A stretch of 23,456 bases of DNA from a virus (lineage: Duplodnaviria; Heunggongvirae; Uroviricota; Caudoviricetes): IMG/VR virus record IMGVR_UViG_2526164646_000006. One strand, written 5' to 3'. The stretch's first letter is position 1. Each line of letters starts with the position of its first letter. Below are positions 1 to 9,267 of the stretch, one piece after another. The notes under the pieces were generated by a model. The model was given only the letters and a program-made list of their open reading frames with translations. It searched no databases and was not told the origin of the DNA. Both the position numbers and the translations under genes were made by a program.

Positions 1-206
1 CGATAACCATACGTGGGCAGCTCTCCGATAACATGGTGTATACGGAGAAGCACATCCGTATCATCAGTGTGACGACTGCGGCGGCCATCCATCCAGTCAT
101 CGGTTCGTCTGAGAATGACGTGCAACTGCGCACGCGACACCCGGAGACAACGGCTGACTAAGCTTACTCCCCATCCCCGGGCAATAAGGGCGCGTGCGCT
201 ATCCAC
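1..206 (-). CDS. insD: IS2 insD (orfB transposase), 5' portion only, cut by window edge
   Basis: Minus-strand translation from GTG at 206 reads [38 protein letters not shown]..., -1 frame relative to insC. Confidence 0.8.
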
Positions 207-528
207 TTTTTTGCCCGTCCATATTCAACGGCTTCTTTGAGGAGTTCATTTTCCATCGTTTTCTTGCCGAGCAGGCGCTGGAGTTCTTTAATCTGCTTCA
301 TGGCGGCAGCAAGTTCAGAGGCAGGAACAACCTGTTCTCCGGCGGCCACAGCAGTAAGACTTCCTTCCTGGTATTGCTTACGCCAGAGAATAACTGGCTG
401 GCTGCTACACCATGTTGCCGGGCAACGAGGGAGACCGTCATCCCCGGTTCAAAGCTCTGCTGAACAATTGCGATCTTTTCCTGTGTGGTACGCCGTCTGC
501 GTTTCTCCGGCCCTAAGACATCAATCAT
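164..528 (-). pseudogene. insC: IS2 insC (orfA) split across two reading frames by an apparent 1-nt deletion
   Basis: ORF 298-573 carries the InsC N-terminus ([13 protein letters not shown]...ASQLF) and ORF 164-349 the C-terminus (...[12 protein letters not shown]...PGDGE) in a different frame; the junction lies near 381-396. Confidence 0.7.
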
Positions 529-616
529 CTGTTCTCCAATGACTAGTCTAAAAACTAGTATTAAGACTATCACTTAAATAAGTGATACTGGTTGTCTGGA
601 GATTCAGGGGGCCAGT

Positions 617-1216
617 CTAGACCTTTAATGCCTCATAGAAGCAACCTTTCAGATTGTTGAACTGACGCCCATTTAGCAGGCCGTGTTCAGTCAGCATGTT
701 GTGTAATTTCCATGCCGCGTCGTTTACTTCGCTGGATGACAGGGGAGGCAACTTGTAAGTTTGGCTTACAGTTTCGGCACCATGAAGCATGGCGTCGCTC
801 CGCTCTATGCCATCCAGCGCGATTCGCAGTGCCTGAATTGTGGTAGAGCTATCGTTTGGGGCTATTCCATATCGCTCGAATACAGCTAAATGGTTGCGCA
901 TAATCTCAGGCGTAAGCTCTTTGTAAGCATAAGCAAGAGGCTCTGATGCATTATCCGGCACAACCGACGCAGGCGCGGCAGCATAAACAGGAATAACGTC
1001 CGCTTGCTCTTTATTGCTTTCATCCGTTAAAGCCCAGAATAATTTCCCGGCAGGATGTTTGAAAATATAAGCAACTGGTTCTGCTTCCAGCGATGCCAGA
1101 GCAATTCGTGCCAGTTCTTCCGCTTCTTCTGCTGGCAGTTCAACGTTGCTACCAGGTCCGTATGTTTCGCGCCACTGCTTGATTGTCAGTAGTCGCTCTT
1201 TGGTCATAGTGGTCAT
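617..1216 (-). CDS. hypothetical phage protein (199 aa) whose stop codon is supplied by the first 3 nt of IS2; probably C-terminally truncated
   Basis: ATG at 1216 directly after the upstream stop with AAGGAGAG RBS; ORF ends with TAG at 617-619, which is the start of the IS2 terminal repeat. Confidence 0.6.
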   Translation of the reverse strand: MTTMTKERLLTIKQWRETYGPGSNVELPAEEAEELARIALASLEAEPVAYIFKHPAGKLFWALTDESNKEQADVIPVYAAAPASVVPDNASEPLAYAYKELTPEIMRNHLAVFERYGIAPNDSSTTIQALRIALDGIERSDAMLHGAETVSQTYKLPPLSSSEVNDAAWKLHNMLTEHGLLNGRQFNNLKGCFYEALKV

Positions 1217-1217
1217 A

Positions 1218-1946
1218 TCACTCTCCTTTGATGCGAAAGCCAGCTGCGCTTGCTGATTCTTCATATGCGCGTTTAGCAGCGTTAAGGATTGCTGCCAGTG
1301 GCGTATAGCCGCCATCCATTCGGATTGTGTTGTGGATGCCAGCCATTGTGTTGCGCAATTTTCTGTGGCTAGCAGACAGTTCTGCTATGCGCTTCTCTGC
1401 GGCTTCCAGCTTCTCGCGCATATCGTCAACGTACTCGACCAGAGAACCGCCAGCAGGAATTTCGCACTCCTCGACCAGTTGGAAGTAGATATCAGCTGCG
1501 GCCCGTGTGTTGCTATGCCTAGCGTCGCCCATCTCACCTTCACGAAGAGCATCGCGTTCGGCGGTAAGATTGGCTATTTTGCTGTCTTTGCCTTCCAGCT
1601 CAACGCGCAGCTTCCCTACCGTTAGCGCAATTTCCTCGTTCTCCTGATCGCGGCGTTTTATGTATTGCTGGTTTCTTTCCAGCTCATCCAGCAGTGCCAG
1701 CACGGTAGCTGGACTGGCTGCGGCGATGAATTCAGCATTGGCCTGCTGTTCCATTTGGAAATCTTCATCGAAACCGCTTTCAGGATGCGCTCCTTCAATT
1801 CTGCAAATGGGAATATATCCAGCAGCCTCGCGATGAATTAGGGCATCATCACCATCAAATCGGCTCTCTCCATATTCGAGCGACCACTCACCACACGTTG
1901 CTTTCTCTGCCTTGGCACGCAGTGCCTGATAGTCAATCTTGCTCAC
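1218..1946 (-). CDS. coiled-coil protein, possibly Ead/Ea22-like
   Basis: GTG at 1946 preceded by AGGAGG with 7-nt spacer; 242 codons; coiled-coil rich; family assignment from recall only. Confidence 0.5.
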   Translation of the reverse strand: MSKIDYQALRAKAEKATCGEWSLEYGESRFDGDDALIHREAAGYIPICRIEGAHPESGFDEDFQMEQQANAEFIAAASPATVLALLDELERNQQYIKRRDQENEEIALTVGKLRVELEGKDSKIANLTAERDALREGEMGDARHSNTRAAADIYFQLVEECEIPAGGSLVEYVDDMREKLEAAEKRIAELSASHRKLRNTMAGIHNTIRMDGGYTPLAAILNAAKRAYEESASAAGFRIKGE

Positions 1947-2166
1947 TGTTTGCCTCCTTTGCTCGCTGATTCCACTCTGCTCTAACCTCTGAATAAAAAA
2001 TCGCGCAGTCATTTCCAGGCGCTGCATATTTGCTACCAGATTGAGCGCGACACGTACCGCATCGAACGAAATAGAATCGACCGCCAGAGCCATATTCAGG
2101 GTGATCTGCTTCGCTGGCAACGTGCGCTGCACCGCCACAGAATGGACATGGTAGTAGGTTGCTCAT
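1933..2166 (-). CDS. Lar-family restriction-alleviation-like small zinc-ribbon protein
   Basis: Translation [12 protein letters not shown]...CGTC... with paired Cys motifs; start ATG overlaps upstream stop as ATGA at 2163-2166. Confidence 0.55.
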   Translation of the reverse strand: MSNLLPCPFCGGAAHVASEADHPEYGSGGRFYFVRCGTCRAQSGSKYAAPGNDCAIFYSEVRAEWNQRAKEANSEQD

Positions 2167-2723
2167 GAATGCACTCCCTTGTGAAGCTGTTCCGCACAAT
2201 GCAGCAGGGCGTCAGTCGCCTCTTTCACCGTAACGCAGTCGCCATCGTCCAGCCCGGACACCGACGCGTGCTTAACGAACGCCGCGCAAAGGTCATCAAA
2301 CGCCTTAGCCCGGACTTCAGTCAGGAAAGCATCGGTGGCTGGGGTGTCTGATTGCATAGACTTTGCGCGATAGTCATTCCACCCTCTTGCATACATGGGA
2401 TTAACTTGCACTCCATCTTTTACGCAATATGCCTGCCCTCCACGGTTGATAACCTTGATTTCGTCCATAGCGCCAGACTTCAGCCCCGCATTCTCCGCTG
2501 CCAGTGCCGAAAACTTCTCGTGTGCCAACTTAACAGCCGAATCAGCCTGCTTAATTGACTCAATCGCTTTCTGTTGGTCTTCGGCCAGCGCCAAAATCTT
2601 GGCCTCCGCTTCAGCAAATTTACGCACCAGATATTCAGCGTTTGTTTCGTTAACATTTAAATCTCGTGGGATGCATTTACCTTTCAGAAAACCATCCATC
2701 TCAATTAGTGACATTTGTTTCAT
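2163..2723 (-). CDS. hypothetical protein (186 aa)
   Basis: Open frame starting [11 protein letters not shown]...; ATG overlaps upstream stop (ATGA at 2720-2723). Confidence 0.6.
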
Positions 2724-2902
2724 TTCTTCCCACTCCGCCACATCGCATTCAGATATTTGTTTTGATTCACTGATGGAAACGAGTTTCGCTTAAGCAATTC
2801 CTCTCTCGATGGCATTGGCTTTACGCGTTGGCGAATAATCATTTCTGCCGGAAGAATGCCGGGATTGTATGCAAGTCCTCTCATGGTAAATTCCTCAGTC
2901 AT
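2720..2902 (-). CDS. small hypothetical protein (60 aa)
   Basis: ATG at 2902 overlapping end of upstream gene; no clear RBS; likely translationally coupled. Confidence 0.35.
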
Positions 2903-3191
2903 TACTGATAGCGCCATAGCGTGATCGATAATTACGCAGACGCGGGTCGATATATTCAGGGAAGTGGGTATATGTGGCTTTGCGGAATGGTCGGATTGAT
3001 GTCTGGTAAATTCGCTCGCGTTCTTCTTTCTCTGCAAGCCATATACAGTGGCGAAATTCCTTTTCCTCTTTCGTTTCCTGCGGTAGCGACATTATCCGAT
3101 CGTAGTTTTTTCTGAATTTATCCAGCACCTCCGATACGGAATTGCCGGAACAGCGGCGCGGGTCATCCGCACCATACAGAGGCGCTGGCAT
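2895..3191 (-). CDS. hypothetical protein (98 aa)
   Basis: ATG at 3191 with AGGAG RBS 6 nt upstream. Confidence 0.55.
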
Positions 3192-3207
3192 GTTTTTCTC
3201 CTGTTGA

Positions 3208-3756
3208 TTATTTAGCTAACTTTTTCCAGATCGCTGAAACGTATTTGGCTTGGTGAATGGCATCATCAAGAGCGTTGTGGCGAGTTCCTTTGAATGGCAT
3301 ATCTCGCTTAGGGTCGAATCCTATTGCCTTCCCAAGTTCGACGATTGTTCTTACGTCGCGGTCATTCCACCACTGCCACGGAACTGGCTGCCCTGTCAGC
3401 GAATAACTGTTGCGGAGAATAACGCAGTCAAATGATGCTCCATTCCCCCAAACCTGAACGAATTTGTGGTTAGCGTTCTTTATGATGAATTCAGATAACC
3501 ATGAAAGAGCCGTTGAAAGCTCCTGAGTGTTGCTGGTTAGCGATTTCCTGGCTTCTTCACTCTGTTCCAGCCACCATAAAATCGTTGAAGCGTCAGGACG
3601 CGCTCGATATCGCATTGATGATTCAAGCGAGATATTTACCGAGAACTCTTCTCCTGTTTCTCCGGTATTCGGGTCAAAGAATACCGCCCCAATAGAAATA
3701 ACTGGCGCGTATGGCCCGTTGCCCATTGTTTCAAGGTCAACCATCAAGTGATTCAT
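3208..3756 (-). CDS. DnaQ-like DEDDh 3'-5' exonuclease
   Basis: Motifs DLETMG, FD and HNALDDA in the translation; sits beside SSB and the annealase. Confidence 0.75.
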   Translation of the reverse strand: MNHLMVDLETMGNGPYAPVISIGAVFFDPNTGETGEEFSVNISLESSMRYRARPDASTILWWLEQSEEARKSLTSNTQELSTALSWLSEFIIKNANHKFVQVWGNGASFDCVILRNSYSLTGQPVPWQWWNDRDVRTIVELGKAIGFDPKRDMPFKGTRHNALDDAIHQAKYVSAIWKKLAK

Positions 3757-3764
3757 GTAAGTCC

Positions 3765-4280
3765 TTAAATTGCGTGAATAGCGTGACGAGGGAAGGGGAG
3801 AGTTACTGGTGCAAAGGGGATATCGTCGTCAAAATCCATAGGTGGTTCGCTGTGATTTCCCTGCTGCTGAGGTTGCTGTCTTTGTTGCTGACCATTATTT
3901 CGCTGAGGTGAAGACTGTTCATTGCCTCCTTGCTTGCCACCAAGCATTTGCATGGTTCCACCAACGCCCACGATGACTTCGGTAGTGAACCGATCCTGTC
4001 CGCTTTGATCCTGCCATTTTCTTGTCCGCAATTTGCCTTCAAGATAAACCTCAGAGCCTTTTCGCAGATATTCGCTGGCAATTTCTGCCAGTTTCCCGCT
4101 CATTACCACGCGGTGCCACTCCGTCTGCTCCTTTTGCTCTCCAGTTTTCTTATCACGCCATTGTTCTGACGTAGCAACGGTAAGGTTTGCAAATGCCGTT
4201 CCTGATGGTGAATATCTGATTTCTGGATCATGCCCAAGGCGACCAATAATGATCACCTTATTTACGCCTCTGCTTGCCAT
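3765..4280 (-). CDS. ssb: single-stranded DNA-binding protein with 15-residue extension after the DDDIPF tail
   Basis: OB-fold SSB N-terminus, Gly/Gln-rich linker, [10 protein letters not shown] followed by [15 protein letters not shown] before the TAA at 3765-3767. Confidence 0.9.
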
Positions 4281-4988
4281 TTATGCCGCCTGTTTTAGTT
4301 CGTTAACTCTGATGTTCATTACCTGAACGCATTTAGCCTGCGCCTCCTCGTTGCCAGCCATTAATTGCCAGTCACGCTGATAACGCTCGATGAGTTTTTT
4401 CTTGTCAGTTTCTGTTGACGCATAATCGCTGAAGTCTTTCAGGATTTGTTCGCAGTCAACCGATGGAGATTTCTGGTTGGTATTTTCTGGTGATGGTTTG
4501 TTATCTGATGCTGGGATTGCCCATCCCGGCAGCGATGGAGGGAGCCAGTAAAATCCTGTTCCATCCTTGAGTTTTGCCCTGTGCCATCCCTGCTTTTTAT
4601 CGAGAGATGTTTGTGCAAAACCTTCCTCAAGGTTATACAGATACCGACCGATCCCCCACTGAACGGCAGCGCGCTTCATTGCACCGGAACGACCACCTTT
4701 GACGGCTTCTACCTGCGTGTTTTCAGCAGCATCCCATTTGGTTACCCATTCGGAATCAATCCTGATTGATATGCCGCATTCAACGCCTCCGTTGTTGGGA
4801 ATATCGCGGTATTCATTGCGCCATCCTGCTTTGCCGCAAACATCGTCCAGGCGTTTCATGATTGCCCGGTTCGTGACATAAGCCAGCACCATAGCCCACA
4901 CTTTGCCATCGCGTGTTTTACCGCTTTGCTGTATTCGCCATTCGATATCTTCAGGGCTGAATGGCTTATCGAATTTATTCAAATCCAT
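4281..4988 (-). CDS. Rad52/22-family single-strand annealing recombinase
   Basis: 235 aa; central region resembles Rad52-type annealases; GAGGTGA RBS; stop abuts ssb start. Confidence 0.65.
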   Translation of the reverse strand: MDLNKFDKPFSPEDIEWRIQQSGKTRDGKVWAMVLAYVTNRAIMKRLDDVCGKAGWRNEYRDIPNNGGVECGISIRIDSEWVTKWDAAENTQVEAVKGGRSGAMKRAAVQWGIGRYLYNLEEGFAQTSLDKKQGWHRAKLKDGTGFYWLPPSLPGWAIPASDNKPSPENTNQKSPSVDCEQILKDFSDYASTETDKKKLIERYQRDWQLMAGNEEAQAKCVQVMNIRVNELKQAA

Positions 4989-5087
4989 AATTCACCTCAG
5001 AATGGACATGGCCCAAGGAAATAACGCTGGTTTAATACTTCGACTCTGGACAAATTAAGGCATACCCGCATTCCTTCGCGGTCACCA

Positions 5088-5246
5088 TTATGGCGATACC
5101 AGAGAGCTTTCTGCGTGTACATGCGTCTCTGTAACTTGCTCTCCTTCACTGTGGTTGCAAGTGACATGAATATCTCCTTCGTTACCGATTAATTCTTTCA
5201 TATGACGAATGAATTCTTCGTCTGACCAGTTATCTGTAAAACTCAT
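5088..5246 (-). CDS. small hypothetical protein (52 aa)
   Basis: ATG at 5246 overlaps the Kil-like stop (ATGA). Confidence 0.3.
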   Translation of the reverse strand: MSFTDNWSDEEFIRHMKELIGNEGDIHVTCNHSEGEQVTETHVHAESSLVSP

Positions 5247-5395
5247 TTCCTGCGACACCACGGAAGGTTGATAGCTGATTTCATCGCTTTATTTGCTTCA
5301 AGCCACATTTTTGAATCACCAATAAATCTGGCTATTACTGCTTTGTTCTGTGCAGCACGAAGCATCTGATGATTTATGGCTATTTCATTGCGCAT
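5243..5395 (-). CDS. kil: Kil-like small protein (50 aa)
   Basis: Translation MRNEIAINHQMLRAAQNKAVIARFIGDSKMW... with position immediately downstream of cIII. Confidence 0.45.
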   Translation of the reverse strand: MRNEIAINHQMLRAAQNKAVIARFIGDSKMWLEANKAMKSAINLPWCRRK

Positions 5396-5511
5396 AATAA
5401 GACCTCAACTCTTTTCCATCCGTCACGTAATTTACGGGTGATTCGTTCAAGTAAAGATTCATTTAGTTGGAAGGCACCCATGCGAGCGCCTCCCGCGATT
5501 GCGTAAATCAT
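5380..5511 (-). CDS. cIII: CIII-like small protein (43 aa)
   Basis: Contains ESLLERITRKLRDGWKR, matching the lambda CIII core as recalled; AAGGAA RBS. Confidence 0.7.
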   Translation of the reverse strand: MIYAIAGGARMGAFQLNESLLERITRKLRDGWKRVEVLLCAMK

Positions 5512-5535
5512 GGGTGGTTCCTTATGTTGGTTTTA

Positions 5536-6504
5536 TTAGTAGGTTATTTTTGTTGCGAATACTTCGCCTTTTACGATGGCTGTTATGATATTTTTAGCAA
5601 CATCTTCTGATGCACCAACCTTGATAAGGTCAGCAAGTATTTTGTTATTTACTTCTTTCCGGTGAGCTTTATCCTTTGCTCTACGCTCTTCTTCTTCCTT
5701 GATTCTTTTTTCTTCTGCTATTCTGGCTTGCTCTTTTGCTTCAGCATCGCGACGGATTCGTTCAGCCTCCTCCTGTGCTTTTCTGCGTTCTGCTTCAATT
5801 GCTGCCTGCTTTTCTCTTTCAGCTCGTTCTGCTGCCTCTTTTGCTTCGCGCTGTGCTCGCTGCTCGGCTTCAATGCGTTCACGCTCTGCACGTTCCGCTG
5901 CGGCCTTAGCTTCTGCTTCTCGCCTTGCTGCTGCTTCAATTTCGGCTTTTGCCTTTGCTTCGGCTTCTGCTCTGGCTTTCTCTTCAGCTTCTCTTTTTAA
6001 GCGTTCTTCATGCTCTCGCTTTTCCTGCTCCGCTTTGAGTCTTGCCTCTTCTCTTTGGCGGTCAAATTCGCGATCCATCAAAATAGCTATTTCATGGTCA
6101 GACTCAATTTGCTTTGCGAGAGCTTCAGCTGCTGCCTTAGCTTCTTCTTCGGCTTTAATCCGCGCCTGTTCTTCCTCATAATCAGTAAGAGGCTGGCGCG
6201 CCTTGGCTTTCAGTTCATCAAGGCGATCGCGCACTGTCTTGCGGTTAGCATCAATTAGCTTTGGAATTTCCTTCAGTTCAGCAACAAGGTCTTTGCCAAG
6301 ACCATCGAGATATGTTTTCGTCTGCGCAACTTTATACGCCAGAGAAGCGATCTCCTTTCTGCCCTTTGCCGTTGTGATATCAGGCACAAAGGACATAACT
6401 TCACGTTCAACCTTTTGAAGGATTTCTTCAATCTGGTCGGCAGACTGAAATACAGTCATTGCATTTGCTTTTTCAATAACAACTAAATCTGTTACTTCAC
6501 TCAT
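5536..6504 (-). CDS. charged coiled-coil protein with E/A/K/R-rich low-complexity core (322 aa)
   Basis: ATG at 6504 with GGAGGA RBS; long AEAKAKAE/ERAERE repetitive segment. Confidence 0.6.
   Translation of the reverse strand: MSEVTDLVVIEKANAMTVFQSADQIEEILQKVEREVMSFVPDITTAKGRKEIASLAYKVAQTKTYLDGLGKDLVAELKEIPKLIDANRKTVRDRLDELKAKARQPLTDYEEEQARIKAEEEAKAAAEALAKQIESDHEIAILMDREFDRQREEARLKAEQEKREHEERLKREAEEKARAEAEAKAKAEIEAAARREAEAKAAAERAERERIEAEQRAQREAKEAAERAEREKQAAIEAERRKAQEEAERIRRDAEAKEQARIAEEKRIKEEEERRAKDKAHRKEVNNKILADLIKVGASEDVAKNIITAIVKGEVFATKITY
5607..6117 (-). repeat. imperfect short tandem repeats encoding the E/A/K/R-rich segment
   Basis: Recurrent gcttctgc/ttcggcttc-type units on the plus strand; produces low-complexity shadow ORFs in other frames. 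Confidence 0.5.
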
Positions 6505-6514
6505 ATATCCTCCG

Positions 6515-6545
6515 TCAAAAAAATTGCCCTCACACTGGAGGGCAA
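6515..6545 (-). terminator. intrinsic terminator just upstream of the coiled-coil gene
   Basis: Minus-strand 8-bp stem (6524-6531 / 6538-6545) with 6-nt loop followed by a U-run (plus-strand A-run 6515-6523). Confidence 0.5.
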
Positions 6546-6679
6546 AGAAGATTTCCAATAATCAGAACAAGTCGGCTCCTGTTTAGTTACGAGCGACATT
6601 GCTCCGTGTATTCACTCGTTGGAATGAATACACAGTGCAGTGTTTATTCTGTTGTTTATGCCAAAAATAAAGGCCACCG

Positions 6680-6880
6680 TCAGGCAGCCTTGTTGTTCAG
6701 TTTACCAAGTTCTCTGGCAATCATTGCCGTCGTTCGTATTGCCCATTTATCGACATATTTCCCATCTTCCATTACAGGAAACATTTCTTCAGGCTTAACC
6801 ATGCATTCCGATTGCAGCTTGCATCCATTGCATCGCTTGAATTGTCCACACCATTGATTTTTATCAATGGTCGTAGTCAT
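6680..6880 (-). CDS. ral: Ral restriction-alleviation protein
   Basis: 66-aa translation MTTTIDKNQWCGQFKRCNGCKLQSECMVKPEEMFPVMEDGKYVDKWAIRTTAMIARELGK matches lambda Ral as recalled. Confidence 0.9.
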   Translation of the reverse strand: MTTTIDKNQWCGQFKRCNGCKLQSECMVKPEEMFPVMEDGKYVDKWAIRTTAMIARELGKLNNKAA

Positions 6881-6950
6881 ACGGATAGTCCTGGTATTGT
6901 TCCATCACATCCTGAGGATGCTCTTCGAACTCTTCAAATTCTTCTTCCAT
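6864..6950 (-). CDS. small acidic ORF (28 aa) between N and ral
   Basis: MEEEFEEFEEHPQDVMEQYQDYPYDYDH; stop overlaps ral start. Confidence 0.4.
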   Translation of the reverse strand: MEEEFEEFEEHPQDVMEQYQDYPYDYDH

Positions 6951-6958
6951 ATATCACC

Positions 6959-7285
6959 TCAAATAAGTGGTTTGCTGCCTAATTTCATTTTCTGGCGACC
7001 AACACAAGTCACACCCATTTCACTGCGTGGCTTGCTGTACCATGTGCGCTGATTCTTGCGCTCAATACGCTGCAGGTTGCTTTCAATCTGTTCGTGGTAT
7101 TCAGCCAGCACCGTAAGGTCTATCGGATTCAGTGCGCTTTCTACTCGTGATTTCGGTTTGCGATTCAGCGAGAGAATAGGGCGGTTAACTGGTTTTGCGC
7201 TTACCCCAACCAACAGGGGATTTGCTGCTTTCCATTGAGCCTGTTTCTCTGCGCGACGTTCGCGGCGGCGTGTTTGAGAGTCCAT
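6959..7285 (-). CDS. N: N transcription antitermination protein
   Basis: 108 aa; MDSQTRRRERRAEKQAQWKAANPLL... arginine-rich motif and near identity to lambda N as recalled; GAGGA RBS. Confidence 0.95.
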   Translation of the reverse strand: MDSQTRRRERRAEKQAQWKAANPLLVGVSAKPVNRPILSLNRKPKSRVESALNPIDLTVLAEYHEQIESNLQRIERKNQRTWYSKPRSEMGVTCVGRQKMKLGSKPLI

Positions 7286-7326
7286 ATATCATCCTCAGAT
7301 AAATGGCCCCTCAGCGGGGCCGACAG

Positions 7327-7455
7327 TTATTGGCAGGTTGCGTACTTGCTGATGCAGGAGAAGATTTCCACGATTCGCGTCATTGTTGTTTCAGGACGCT
7401 TTGCTTCATCACGCATTGACTTCAACCAAGCCATAAAGTGTTCGTTATGTTTCAT
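7327..7455 (-). CDS. small ORF (42-44 aa) in the N leader
   Basis: ATG at 7455 six nt after AGGAG (second ATG at 7461); ends 40 nt before N. Confidence 0.3.
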   Translation of the reverse strand: MKHNEHFMAWLKSMRDEAKRPETTMTRIVEIFSCISKYATCQ

Positions 7456-7473
7456 GTTCATCTCCTGTCAGTT

Positions 7474-7703
7474 AGCTTTGGTGGTGTGGTGGCTGGTAGT
7501 CTAGCTCCAGCTTGTTGAGTCTCATTCGGAGGGGTATAACCGGCACCCCAGCGATTTTTCCATGCGACAACGTGCGCGTTATGGCGGCCTTATCGCCCGC
7601 GGCTCCCCATCTCGTCCACGCTATTGCTAGCGTTGGGAGCGCTTCACCGCTCAACAGTAGGTAAGCACTTGCCAGTGACTAGCTGGCTTCACCACACCCC
7701 AAA
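7474..7703 (-). promoter_or_regulatory. N-leader long-range inverted repeat, candidate RNase III-type regulatory stem
   Basis: About 30-nt imperfect inverted repeats at 7474-7510 and 7668-7703 enclosing a GC-rich segment with local hairpins. Confidence 0.45.
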
Positions 7704-7722
7704 GCCTTCTGCTTTGAATGCT

Positions 7723-7752
7723 GCCCTTCTTCAGGGCTTAATTTTTAAGAGC
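7723..7752 (-). promoter_or_regulatory. nutL (boxA + boxB)
   Basis: Minus strand reads GCTCTTAAAAATTAA then GCCCTGAAGAAGGGC. Confidence 0.85.
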
Positions 7753-7797
7753 CTCACCTTCATGGTGGTCAGTGCGTCCTGCTGATGGCTTAAAATT

Positions 7798-7865
7798 ACA
7801 AGAAAGATTGTATGTTGTAAACAAGAAATATTGTAAAAAGGGGCGTGAAAAACAAACTCCATTGT
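7798..7865. promoter_or_regulatory. OL operator cluster / pL region (434-type ACAA-N6-TTGT sites)
   Basis: ACAAGAAAGATTGT 7798-7811, ACAAGAAATATTGT 7821-7834, ACAAACTCCATTGT 7852-7865. Confidence 0.65.
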
Positions 7866-7914
7866 TTTTAAATGAAAAATAGTTTGTTTTTGGTTATCGA
7901 GATTGAGGTGGGGA

Positions 7915-9267
<1,353 letters not shown>

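Follow-up and report, generated by a model that had tools for sequence, protein, structure and literature searches.

Ral and a Lar-family zinc-ribbon gene in a mosaic phage pL operon

The virus record IMGVR_UViG_2526164646_000006 (Caudoviricetes) contains a 23,456-nt stretch of DNA, here called the window, that carries two small genes with restriction-alleviation family labels, ral and a Lar-family zinc-ribbon gene. Do these genes form a dedicated anti-restriction pair, or do they share an operon through the mosaicism of lambdoid phages? A sequence-only reading of the window had described two restriction-alleviation genes in one leftward operon and had regarded the early-left region as an anti-defence and accessory island rather than a minimal lambda-type delayed-early set. 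The analysis reported here indicates that the pairing is a product of lambdoid mosaicism and not a functional pair, and that the pL operon is an ordinary mosaic of P22-like and lambda early-left modules. Coordinates are those of the whole window, and every operon gene noted here is on the minus strand. The two genes are as follows.

6680..6880, minus strand: ral, putative restriction alleviation/modification enhancement protein (type IA restriction-modification, R-M), 66 amino acids (aa); PF11058, E 2.2e-48
1933..2166, minus strand: Lar-family zinc-ribbon protein, 77 aa (C7, C10, C36, C39; W65-N66-x-R68); PF14354

The Ral protein scores 162 bits against PF11058, for which the Pfam cut-off is 25, and is identical to lambda Ral at 65/66 residues, which bears out its identification from sequence. 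The DNA of ral and the adjacent orf28 is 97.8% identical to lambda across 458 bp. This near-identity suggests that the protein alleviates restriction and enhances modification by type IA R-M systems, an activity of lambda Ral that was reportedly described by Loenen and Murray in 1986. Ral would drive type IA R-M enzymes to methylate unmodified DNA, and restriction would thereby be relieved.

The Lar-like open reading frame (ORF) matches the Pfam family PF14354, Lar_restr_allev, with 38.5 bits (gathering (GA) cut-off 28.6, E 1.4e-9) and PHROG 599, 'Lar-like restriction alleviation protein', with E 8e-13. NCBI records an identical 77-aa protein in Shigella flexneri and E. coli under the name 'Lar family restriction alleviation protein'. 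The protein features CPFC and CGTC pairs that form a PCPFCG ... CxxC ribbon, followed by a helix with a W-N-x-R motif. C7, C10, C36, C39, and W65 are invariant in the family alignment, R68 is nearly so, and N66 is present in most sequences. The AlphaFold2 (AF2) model has a predicted local distance difference test (pLDDT) score of 81.5 and features predicted strands at 14-20, 30-36, and 42-48 and a predicted helix at 55-75. A Lar-like zinc-ribbon protein had been proposed at this position, and the profile match and the four-cysteine ribbon agree with it. Assignment to an unrelated zinc-ribbon family had been named as the result that would overturn the proposal; the Pfam search, run with E values up to 10, found no rival family better than E 0.095. 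Zn_ribbon_IS1595, Com, and FdhE_central were all sub-threshold (E ≥0.095) and were ruled out as families of the protein. The Lar-like protein does not reach the cut-off of 39.6 for NCBIfam TIGR03655, anti_R_Lar, scoring 29.4 bits, and it shares 26% identity with the founding and only studied member, Lar (RalR) of the Rac prophage, over 42 of its 77 residues (pairwise E 7e-5). With these values the count of two restriction-alleviation genes is overstated. Judged by sequence, the Lar label is a sound family assignment, and it carries no evidence of function.

The distribution of the two genes addresses whether they are linked. The identical 77-aa Lar-like protein is found in 573 index blocks of an assembly collection. 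The gene order DUF2737, EaE-like, Lar-like, Ead is kept in 10/10 distinct contexts listed, with the EaE-like gene placed between DUF2737 and Ead in all of them, and a 14-nt overlap of the Ead start with the Lar stop is called in 8/10. A tblastn search found ral in 0/10 distinct contexts that encode the identical Lar-like protein, and ral was found within 9 kb of Lar-family genes at 0/73 diverse viral loci. Ral and the Lar-like gene assort independently and therefore form no unit. This distribution makes it unlikely that the operon holds a dedicated double anti-restriction island, in which Ral and the Lar-like protein would be co-selected, either jointly or for complementary type I R-M families, and the small neighbours would also act against defence. 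Such an island would fit the presence of both family labels and of a further counter-defence protein, Abc2, in the same operon, and two other phages, ST104 (NC_005841) and Sf6 (NC_005344), also pair ral with a Lar-family gene. ST104 carries ral with a Lar-like ORF of the window type (97.4% aa identity) and Sf6 carries ral with a different Lar-like gene. Silas et al. treated accessory regions with ral or abc2 as counter-defence regions and screened their genes (bioRxiv 10.1101/2023.04.06.535777), and counter-defence genes are enriched in the accessory regions that surround ral and abc2 (bioRxiv 10.1101/2023.04.06.535777). However, the gene table of that study includes a Lar-family protein that is not named among the main-text hits (bioRxiv 10.1101/2023.04.06.535777). 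The two genes in the window are also 4.5 kb apart with the recombination module between them, and restriction alleviation by this Lar-like subgroup is a family label only.

In two prophage loci that encode the same Lar-like protein, another ORF, of 59 aa, lies near xis and matches Lar_restr_allev weakly (L163:8960-9139 and L165:8262-8441), so that more than one Lar-type zinc ribbon per pL operon would not be unusual. An ORF of the same length and similar placement in prophage L003 is annotated as 'Eag protein'.

The Lar-like ORF at 1933-2166 is a real gene. A competing account, that this stretch is an out-of-frame N-terminal extension of Ead/Ea22 and not a gene, comes from an overlapping ORF of 306 aa at 1218-2138 and from existing annotations, since the annotations of ST104 and HF4s extend the starts of orf8 and EaD, respectively, and include no Lar coding sequence beside them. 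This account is effectively refuted by the substitution pattern and has next to no likelihood left. Read in the Lar frame, the differences from the diverged copies L009 and L010 include 23 and 19 synonymous substitutions; read in the frame of the Ead extension, they include 2-3, and the extension frame contains 3 stop codons over the Lar-like ORF in diverged copies. The Lar frame is the coding frame because changes in it are mostly synonymous and stops occur in the other. Additionally, matches to the Lar family come from three libraries, homologues from Vibrio phages are 48-50% identical, the Pfam domain of Ead begins at the GTG at 1946, and the Lar-like ATG overlaps the stop of the upstream EaE-like gene as ATGA. 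The Lar-like ORF is 97-100% identical, and unannotated, in ST104 (L005:6501-6731) and HF4s (L004:6501-6731). The ST104 annotation misses it because the start of ead was moved upstream, in a different frame, and the same gap is found in HF4s.

There are discrepancies regarding the activity of the founding member of the family. King and Murray 1995 reported restriction alleviation by Lar (as cited in PMC4041452), and Guo et al. 2014 reported RalR, the same Rac protein, as a non-specific DNase toxin with a small RNA antitoxin, RalA (PMC4041452). The activity of Rac Lar is therefore disputed between restriction alleviation and DNase toxin. The window protein and Rac Lar/RalR (E. coli K-12, b1348) share the Pfam family, the xPCPFCG knuckle at the N-terminus, another CxxC, and a helix with W-N-x-R at the C-terminus, and both are small proteins encoded in the leftward operon of a lambdoid prophage, adjoining recombination genes. 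In addition to the low identity, the window protein differs in having an 8-residue insertion (HPEYGSGG) and a longer tail, and its gene is flanked by EaE and Ead, whereas the Rac gene is flanked by recT and rcbA.

Family membership alone suggests that the small Lar-like protein may modulate a DNA-processing enzyme of the host in a zinc-dependent manner. The likeliest target would be type I R-M; this reading is tentative and is held at well below even confidence. That the protein is instead a DNase toxin like RalR, belonging to a type I toxin-antitoxin system and without an anti-restriction role, is distinctly improbable. It would follow from the shared Pfam family and the reported DNase activity and RalA antitoxin of RalR (PMC4041452). 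However, the identity to RalR is low, as given above, and the gene is translationally coupled within a lytic operon between the EaE-like and Ead genes. The fold comparison found no specific nuclease relative for the predicted fold. A RalA antisense RNA, present in Rac, has no counterpart in the window: the best match to RalA is 10 nt (E 3), although there may be a novel unrelated antisense RNA, and Rfam gave no match at the gathering score on the whole window. It is also conceivable, if rather doubtful, that the Lar-like gene acts as part of a conserved three-gene EaE-like/Lar-like/Ead module whose target may be another defence system or that has a RalR-like nuclease activity, and not type IA restriction. 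If this were true, the database label 'Lar = restriction alleviation' would be wrong for the Lar-like subgroup.

The setting of both genes is consistent with one leftward operon, as the sequence-only reading had stated: they belong to a packed string of minus-strand genes behind pL, nutL, and N. The region 617-7865 is very probably the N-antiterminated pL operon of a P22/Sf6-like (Lederbergvirus-type, 434-immunity) E. coli/Shigella prophage. Its proximal features are listed here.

7798..7865, minus strand: OL operators and pL promoter, 434/Sf6 immunity type; identical to the O_L/P_L stretch annotated in Sf6 NC_005344, by annotation transfer
7723..7753, minus strand: nutL, boxA-like GCTCTTAA and boxB hairpin GCCCTGAAGAAGGGC (7737-7723); identical to the nutL annotated in Sf6, with the hairpin also present in the pattern scan
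6959..7285, minus strand: antiterminator N, 108 aa, lambda-N type; full-length alignment to lambda N, and Sf6p37 is annotated as N
6864..6950, minus strand: orf28, 28 aa, extremely acidic MEEEFEEFEEHPQDVMEQYQDYPYDYDH; 27/28 identical to lambda orf28
6670..6691, minus strand: terminator-like hairpin and T-run that overlaps the ral stop codon; pattern match only
6524..6545, minus strand: terminator-like hairpin and T-run from the pattern scan; placed as tL2A is in Sf6, a short way upstream of the gp33-type gene, with the sequences unaligned

The boxB sequence of nutL is presumably that of lambda nutL boxB. The N protein differs from lambda N mostly near the C-terminus. The ral gene is placed just downstream of N, and orf28 overlaps its start. 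The genes from N (6959-7285) down to 617 are all on the minus strand and overlap or are spaced by ≤24 nt, with one exception, a gap of 175 nt after ral that holds the two terminator-like hairpins; promoter and terminator sites in the pattern scan overall were no more numerous than expected by chance. The architecture of an N-antiterminated lambdoid pL operon is thus present, with pL/OL and nutL identical to Sf6, an N gene, co-oriented packed genes, and hairpins after ral. Read-through from pL along the operon is inferred from the biology of lambda and P22. Transcription would begin at pL, N acting on nutL would allow RNA polymerase to pass the hairpin terminators after ral, and the polymerase would continue across ~20 tightly packed genes, many of them translationally coupled. 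The early-left operon of P22-like phages contains ~20 genes, mostly without known function (PMC8022706).

Megablast of window positions 1-9000 against phage genomes gave 97-98% identity, in mosaic pieces, to Sf6, HK633, Huey, N7, and Sf101, which are P22-like or lambdoid temperate phages. Pieces of this region are common to thousands of E. coli prophages, and a search of complete genomes found no complete E. coli genome with ≥80% of positions 1-9000 at one locus. The repressor at 8316-8948 is identical to the counterpart annotated in Sf6.

Several smaller observations belong to this proximal part. The orf28 gene has a good ribosome-binding site, starts 8 nt past the N stop, and overlaps the start of ral by 17 nt. 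An ORF of 44 aa with a Shine-Dalgarno-like sequence is located at 7327-7461 (minus strand) between nutL and N, and a GC-rich hairpin, GGCCCCGCTGAGGGGCC, follows it at 7321-7305, close upstream of where N starts. The position of rexAB in lambda, between pL and the repressor gene, is occupied here by an ORF at 7915-8391 (minus strand), the counterpart of Sf6 gene 38. Its product has a signal-peptide-like N-terminus and no match in Pfam or PADLOC, and it is a candidate lysogen-expressed moron or exclusion protein.

The products of the operon would act in three layers. The first would consist of counter-defence genes of established mechanism, Ral and Abc2. The second would be a core for recombination and host takeover, consisting of the Erf-type annealing protein, the single-stranded DNA-binding protein (SSB), the DEDDh exonuclease, the small ORF at the Arf position, Kil, and cIII. 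The third would be a mosaic, putative 'ea' accessory block with DUF2737, the EaE-like protein, the Lar-family zinc ribbon, Ead/Ea22, and the EaA-like protein. An IS2 insertion truncates the operon at its distal end. The genes of the second layer and their neighbours are listed first.

5536..6504, minus strand: charged coiled-coil protein, 322 aa, Sf6 gp33 type, often mislabelled 'TolA'; PHROG 1376/21365, 99% to Sf6 gene 33
5380..5511, minus strand: cIII (FtsH inhibitor, lysogeny); 100% identical to the PF02061 Lambda_CIII genes in L163/L165/L166, with cIII also annotated as Sf6p32
5243..5395, minus strand: kil (FtsZ/cell-division inhibitor); PF06301, E 1.7e-20
5088..5246, minus strand: HK97 gp42.1-type ORF, 52 aa, at the position of P22 arf (Erf cofactor); PHROG 2123, E 8.5e-41
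4997..5167, minus strand: HK97 gp42-type ORF, 56 aa, with an 80-nt overlap with the gp42.1-type ORF; PHROG 1723
4281..4988, minus strand: Erf/Rad52-type single-strand annealing protein; PF04098, E 3.9e-26, Sf6p28
3765..4280, minus strand: phage SSB; PF00436, E 3.7e-38
3208..3756, minus strand: DEDDh 3'-5' exonuclease (Rv2179c-like); PF16473, E 6.9e-74, PHROG 255

No Pfam family was found for the 322-aa gp33-type protein, and annotations of its relatives vary between 'TolA' and 'Gam antitoxin (phi80 Agt-like)'. Because the mechanical ORF start at 6558 falls inside a terminator-like hairpin, this gene more likely starts at the ATG at 6504. The gp42.1-type ORF has 7 synonymous versus 1 non-synonymous variable sites among >80 copies and is taken to be coding because 7/8 of its variable sites are synonymous. 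Its similarity to P22 Arf is limited to an SDEEFI motif near the N-terminus, with a non-significant E of 0.18, and both are located between kil and erf. In the 80-nt overlap, 3/3 variable sites change the gp42 product and leave that of gp42.1 unchanged. Below the overlap, the gp42 frame varies mainly at third codon positions and looks coding. Since the gp42 frame is unconstrained in the overlap and coding-like below it, the true gp42 start may be downstream of 5167. An ATG/GTG polymorphism occurs at 5071. The DEDDh exonuclease gene lies between ssb and abc2, in the place that abc1 takes in P22, and its Sf6 counterpart is labelled 'endonuclease'. The enzyme may serve recombination or counter-defence. 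A literature search for a phage role of Rv2179c-like exonucleases returned nothing relevant.

The distal genes extend from abc2 to the IS2 end.

2895..3191, minus strand: abc2, anti-RecBCD protein; PF11043, E 4.3e-62, 92.9% identical to P22 Abc2
2720..2884, minus strand: DUF2737 (P22 orf56/HK620 hkaI family), 54 aa; PF10930, E 2.6e-31, 75% identical to P22 orf56
2163..2723, minus strand: EaE-like protein, 186 aa, P22 EaE/HK620 hkaH family; PHROG 614 (no function given), with homologues annotated 'EaE protein'
1218..1946, minus strand: Ead/Ea22-like protein, with a GTG start and a 14-nt overlap with the Lar stop; PF13935, E 1.8e-30, residue 2 aligned with profile position 1
617..1216, minus strand: EaA-like protein, C-terminus cut by the IS2 insertion; 41% identical to the N-terminus of P22 EaA, with the ORF running into IS2
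1..633, no strand assigned: end of IS2 (IS3 family) that interrupts the operon; 98-99% identity to copies of IS2 from numerous E. coli genomes

The Abc2 assignment is strong, with 206.8 bits against a cut-off of 25 and a match to PF11043 profile positions 1-97 of 97. Abc2 would bind RecC, and RecBCD would thereby be redirected. The EaE-like protein shares 31% identity with P22 EaE over 103 aa (E 8.6e-6), and its gene has ATGA stop/start overlaps at both ends. Its homologues form >8000 database clusters, all hypothetical. The AF2 model of this protein is poor, a long coiled-coil helix with a pLDDT of 60.6 and a predicted template modelling (pTM) score of 0.27, below the quality needed for a fold search. 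The stretches 2163-3191 and 5088-5246 had been described as small unassigned proteins. They do contain real ORFs, but these are largely assigned, since they correspond to Abc2, DUF2737, the EaE-like protein, and the HK97 gp42.1-type ORF; the first stretch had merged three genes, the well-known abc2 among them. Beyond the family searches, PADLOC defence models run on ten products gave only weak DEDDh and LmuB coiled-coil matches, and a PDB sequence search gave a chance match only (E 1.2).

The IS2 sequence ends near 633 and contains InsC-like ORFs at 298-573 and 164-349. The insC frame is apparently split between these two ORFs, by a frameshift or a sequencing error. The other ea genes, xis, and int would be expected at the site of IS2. 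None of them is in the window, and excision of the prophage may therefore be impossible.

Comparison with known phages shows how ordinary this arrangement is. The pL operon of lambda holds ral, orf28, ea10, gam, kil, cIII, ea22, ea8.5, and several small ORFs, and it runs from N, orf28, and ral by way of cIII, kil, and gam/bet/exo to ea22, ea8.5, xis, and int. The window shares with lambda a near-identical N-type antiterminator, nutL boxB sequence, orf28, and ral, and also the logic by which counter-defence, recombination, and accessory genes are all expressed from pL. In contrast to Exo/Bet/Gam of lambda, the window has Erf, SSB, the DEDDh exonuclease, and Abc2. It also has 434/Sf6-type immunity and a P22-like ea block, and it lacks the lambda genes sieB and ea10. 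The P22 operon runs from gene 24 and ral by way of c3, kil, arf, erf, abc1, abc2, and orf56 to eaE, orf45, eaF, eaD, eaI, and eaA, and it also includes gene 17. Window and P22 share the order ral, cIII, kil, small ORF, erf, abc2, orf56/DUF2737, EaE-like, small Cys-rich ORF, EaD-like, EaA-like. The differences are abc1 in P22 versus SSB and the exonuclease in the window, orf45 and eaF in P22 versus the 77-aa Lar-family gene in the window, and the additional presence of sieB and gene 17 in P22. P22 orf45 (L007:4331-4468; 45 aa, PCKICGG...HKCEG) is located between eaE and eaF/eaD and has faint similarity to the Lar-like protein (E 0.011). It may be a small zinc-binding ORF that is either degenerate or unrelated.

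Sf6 is 97-98% identical to the window at the DNA level over most of 1677-9000 and has the same pL/OL/nutL. Its gene annotated 'Lar-like restriction alleviation protein', Sf6p20 (100 aa), belongs to another subgroup with 29% identity and is located downstream of ead. Sf6 also has genes 22 and 24, and its gene 34 is an addition between gp33 and ral. In ST104 the Lar-like ORF lies between the EaE-like orf9 and ead, as in the window, and differs in being unannotated. The description of the early-left region as an anti-defence and accessory island holds in that counter-defence and accessory genes are present; it is wrong in opposing the region to a minimal lambda-type delayed-early set, because the pL operons of lambda and P22 are equally non-minimal.

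The genes, their order, and their labels are already present in public phage and prophage annotations and are in this sense already known. The value of the locus is modest. The Lar-like ORF is a real gene, yet in some phage annotations it is replaced by an over-extended Ead start. The label 'Lar-like restriction alleviation' goes back to one distant and disputed founder, and the gene should not be counted as a second proven anti-restriction function beside ral. The fixed order of DUF2737, EaE-like, Lar-like, and Ead provides a cheap, well-defined gene set for anti-defence screening.

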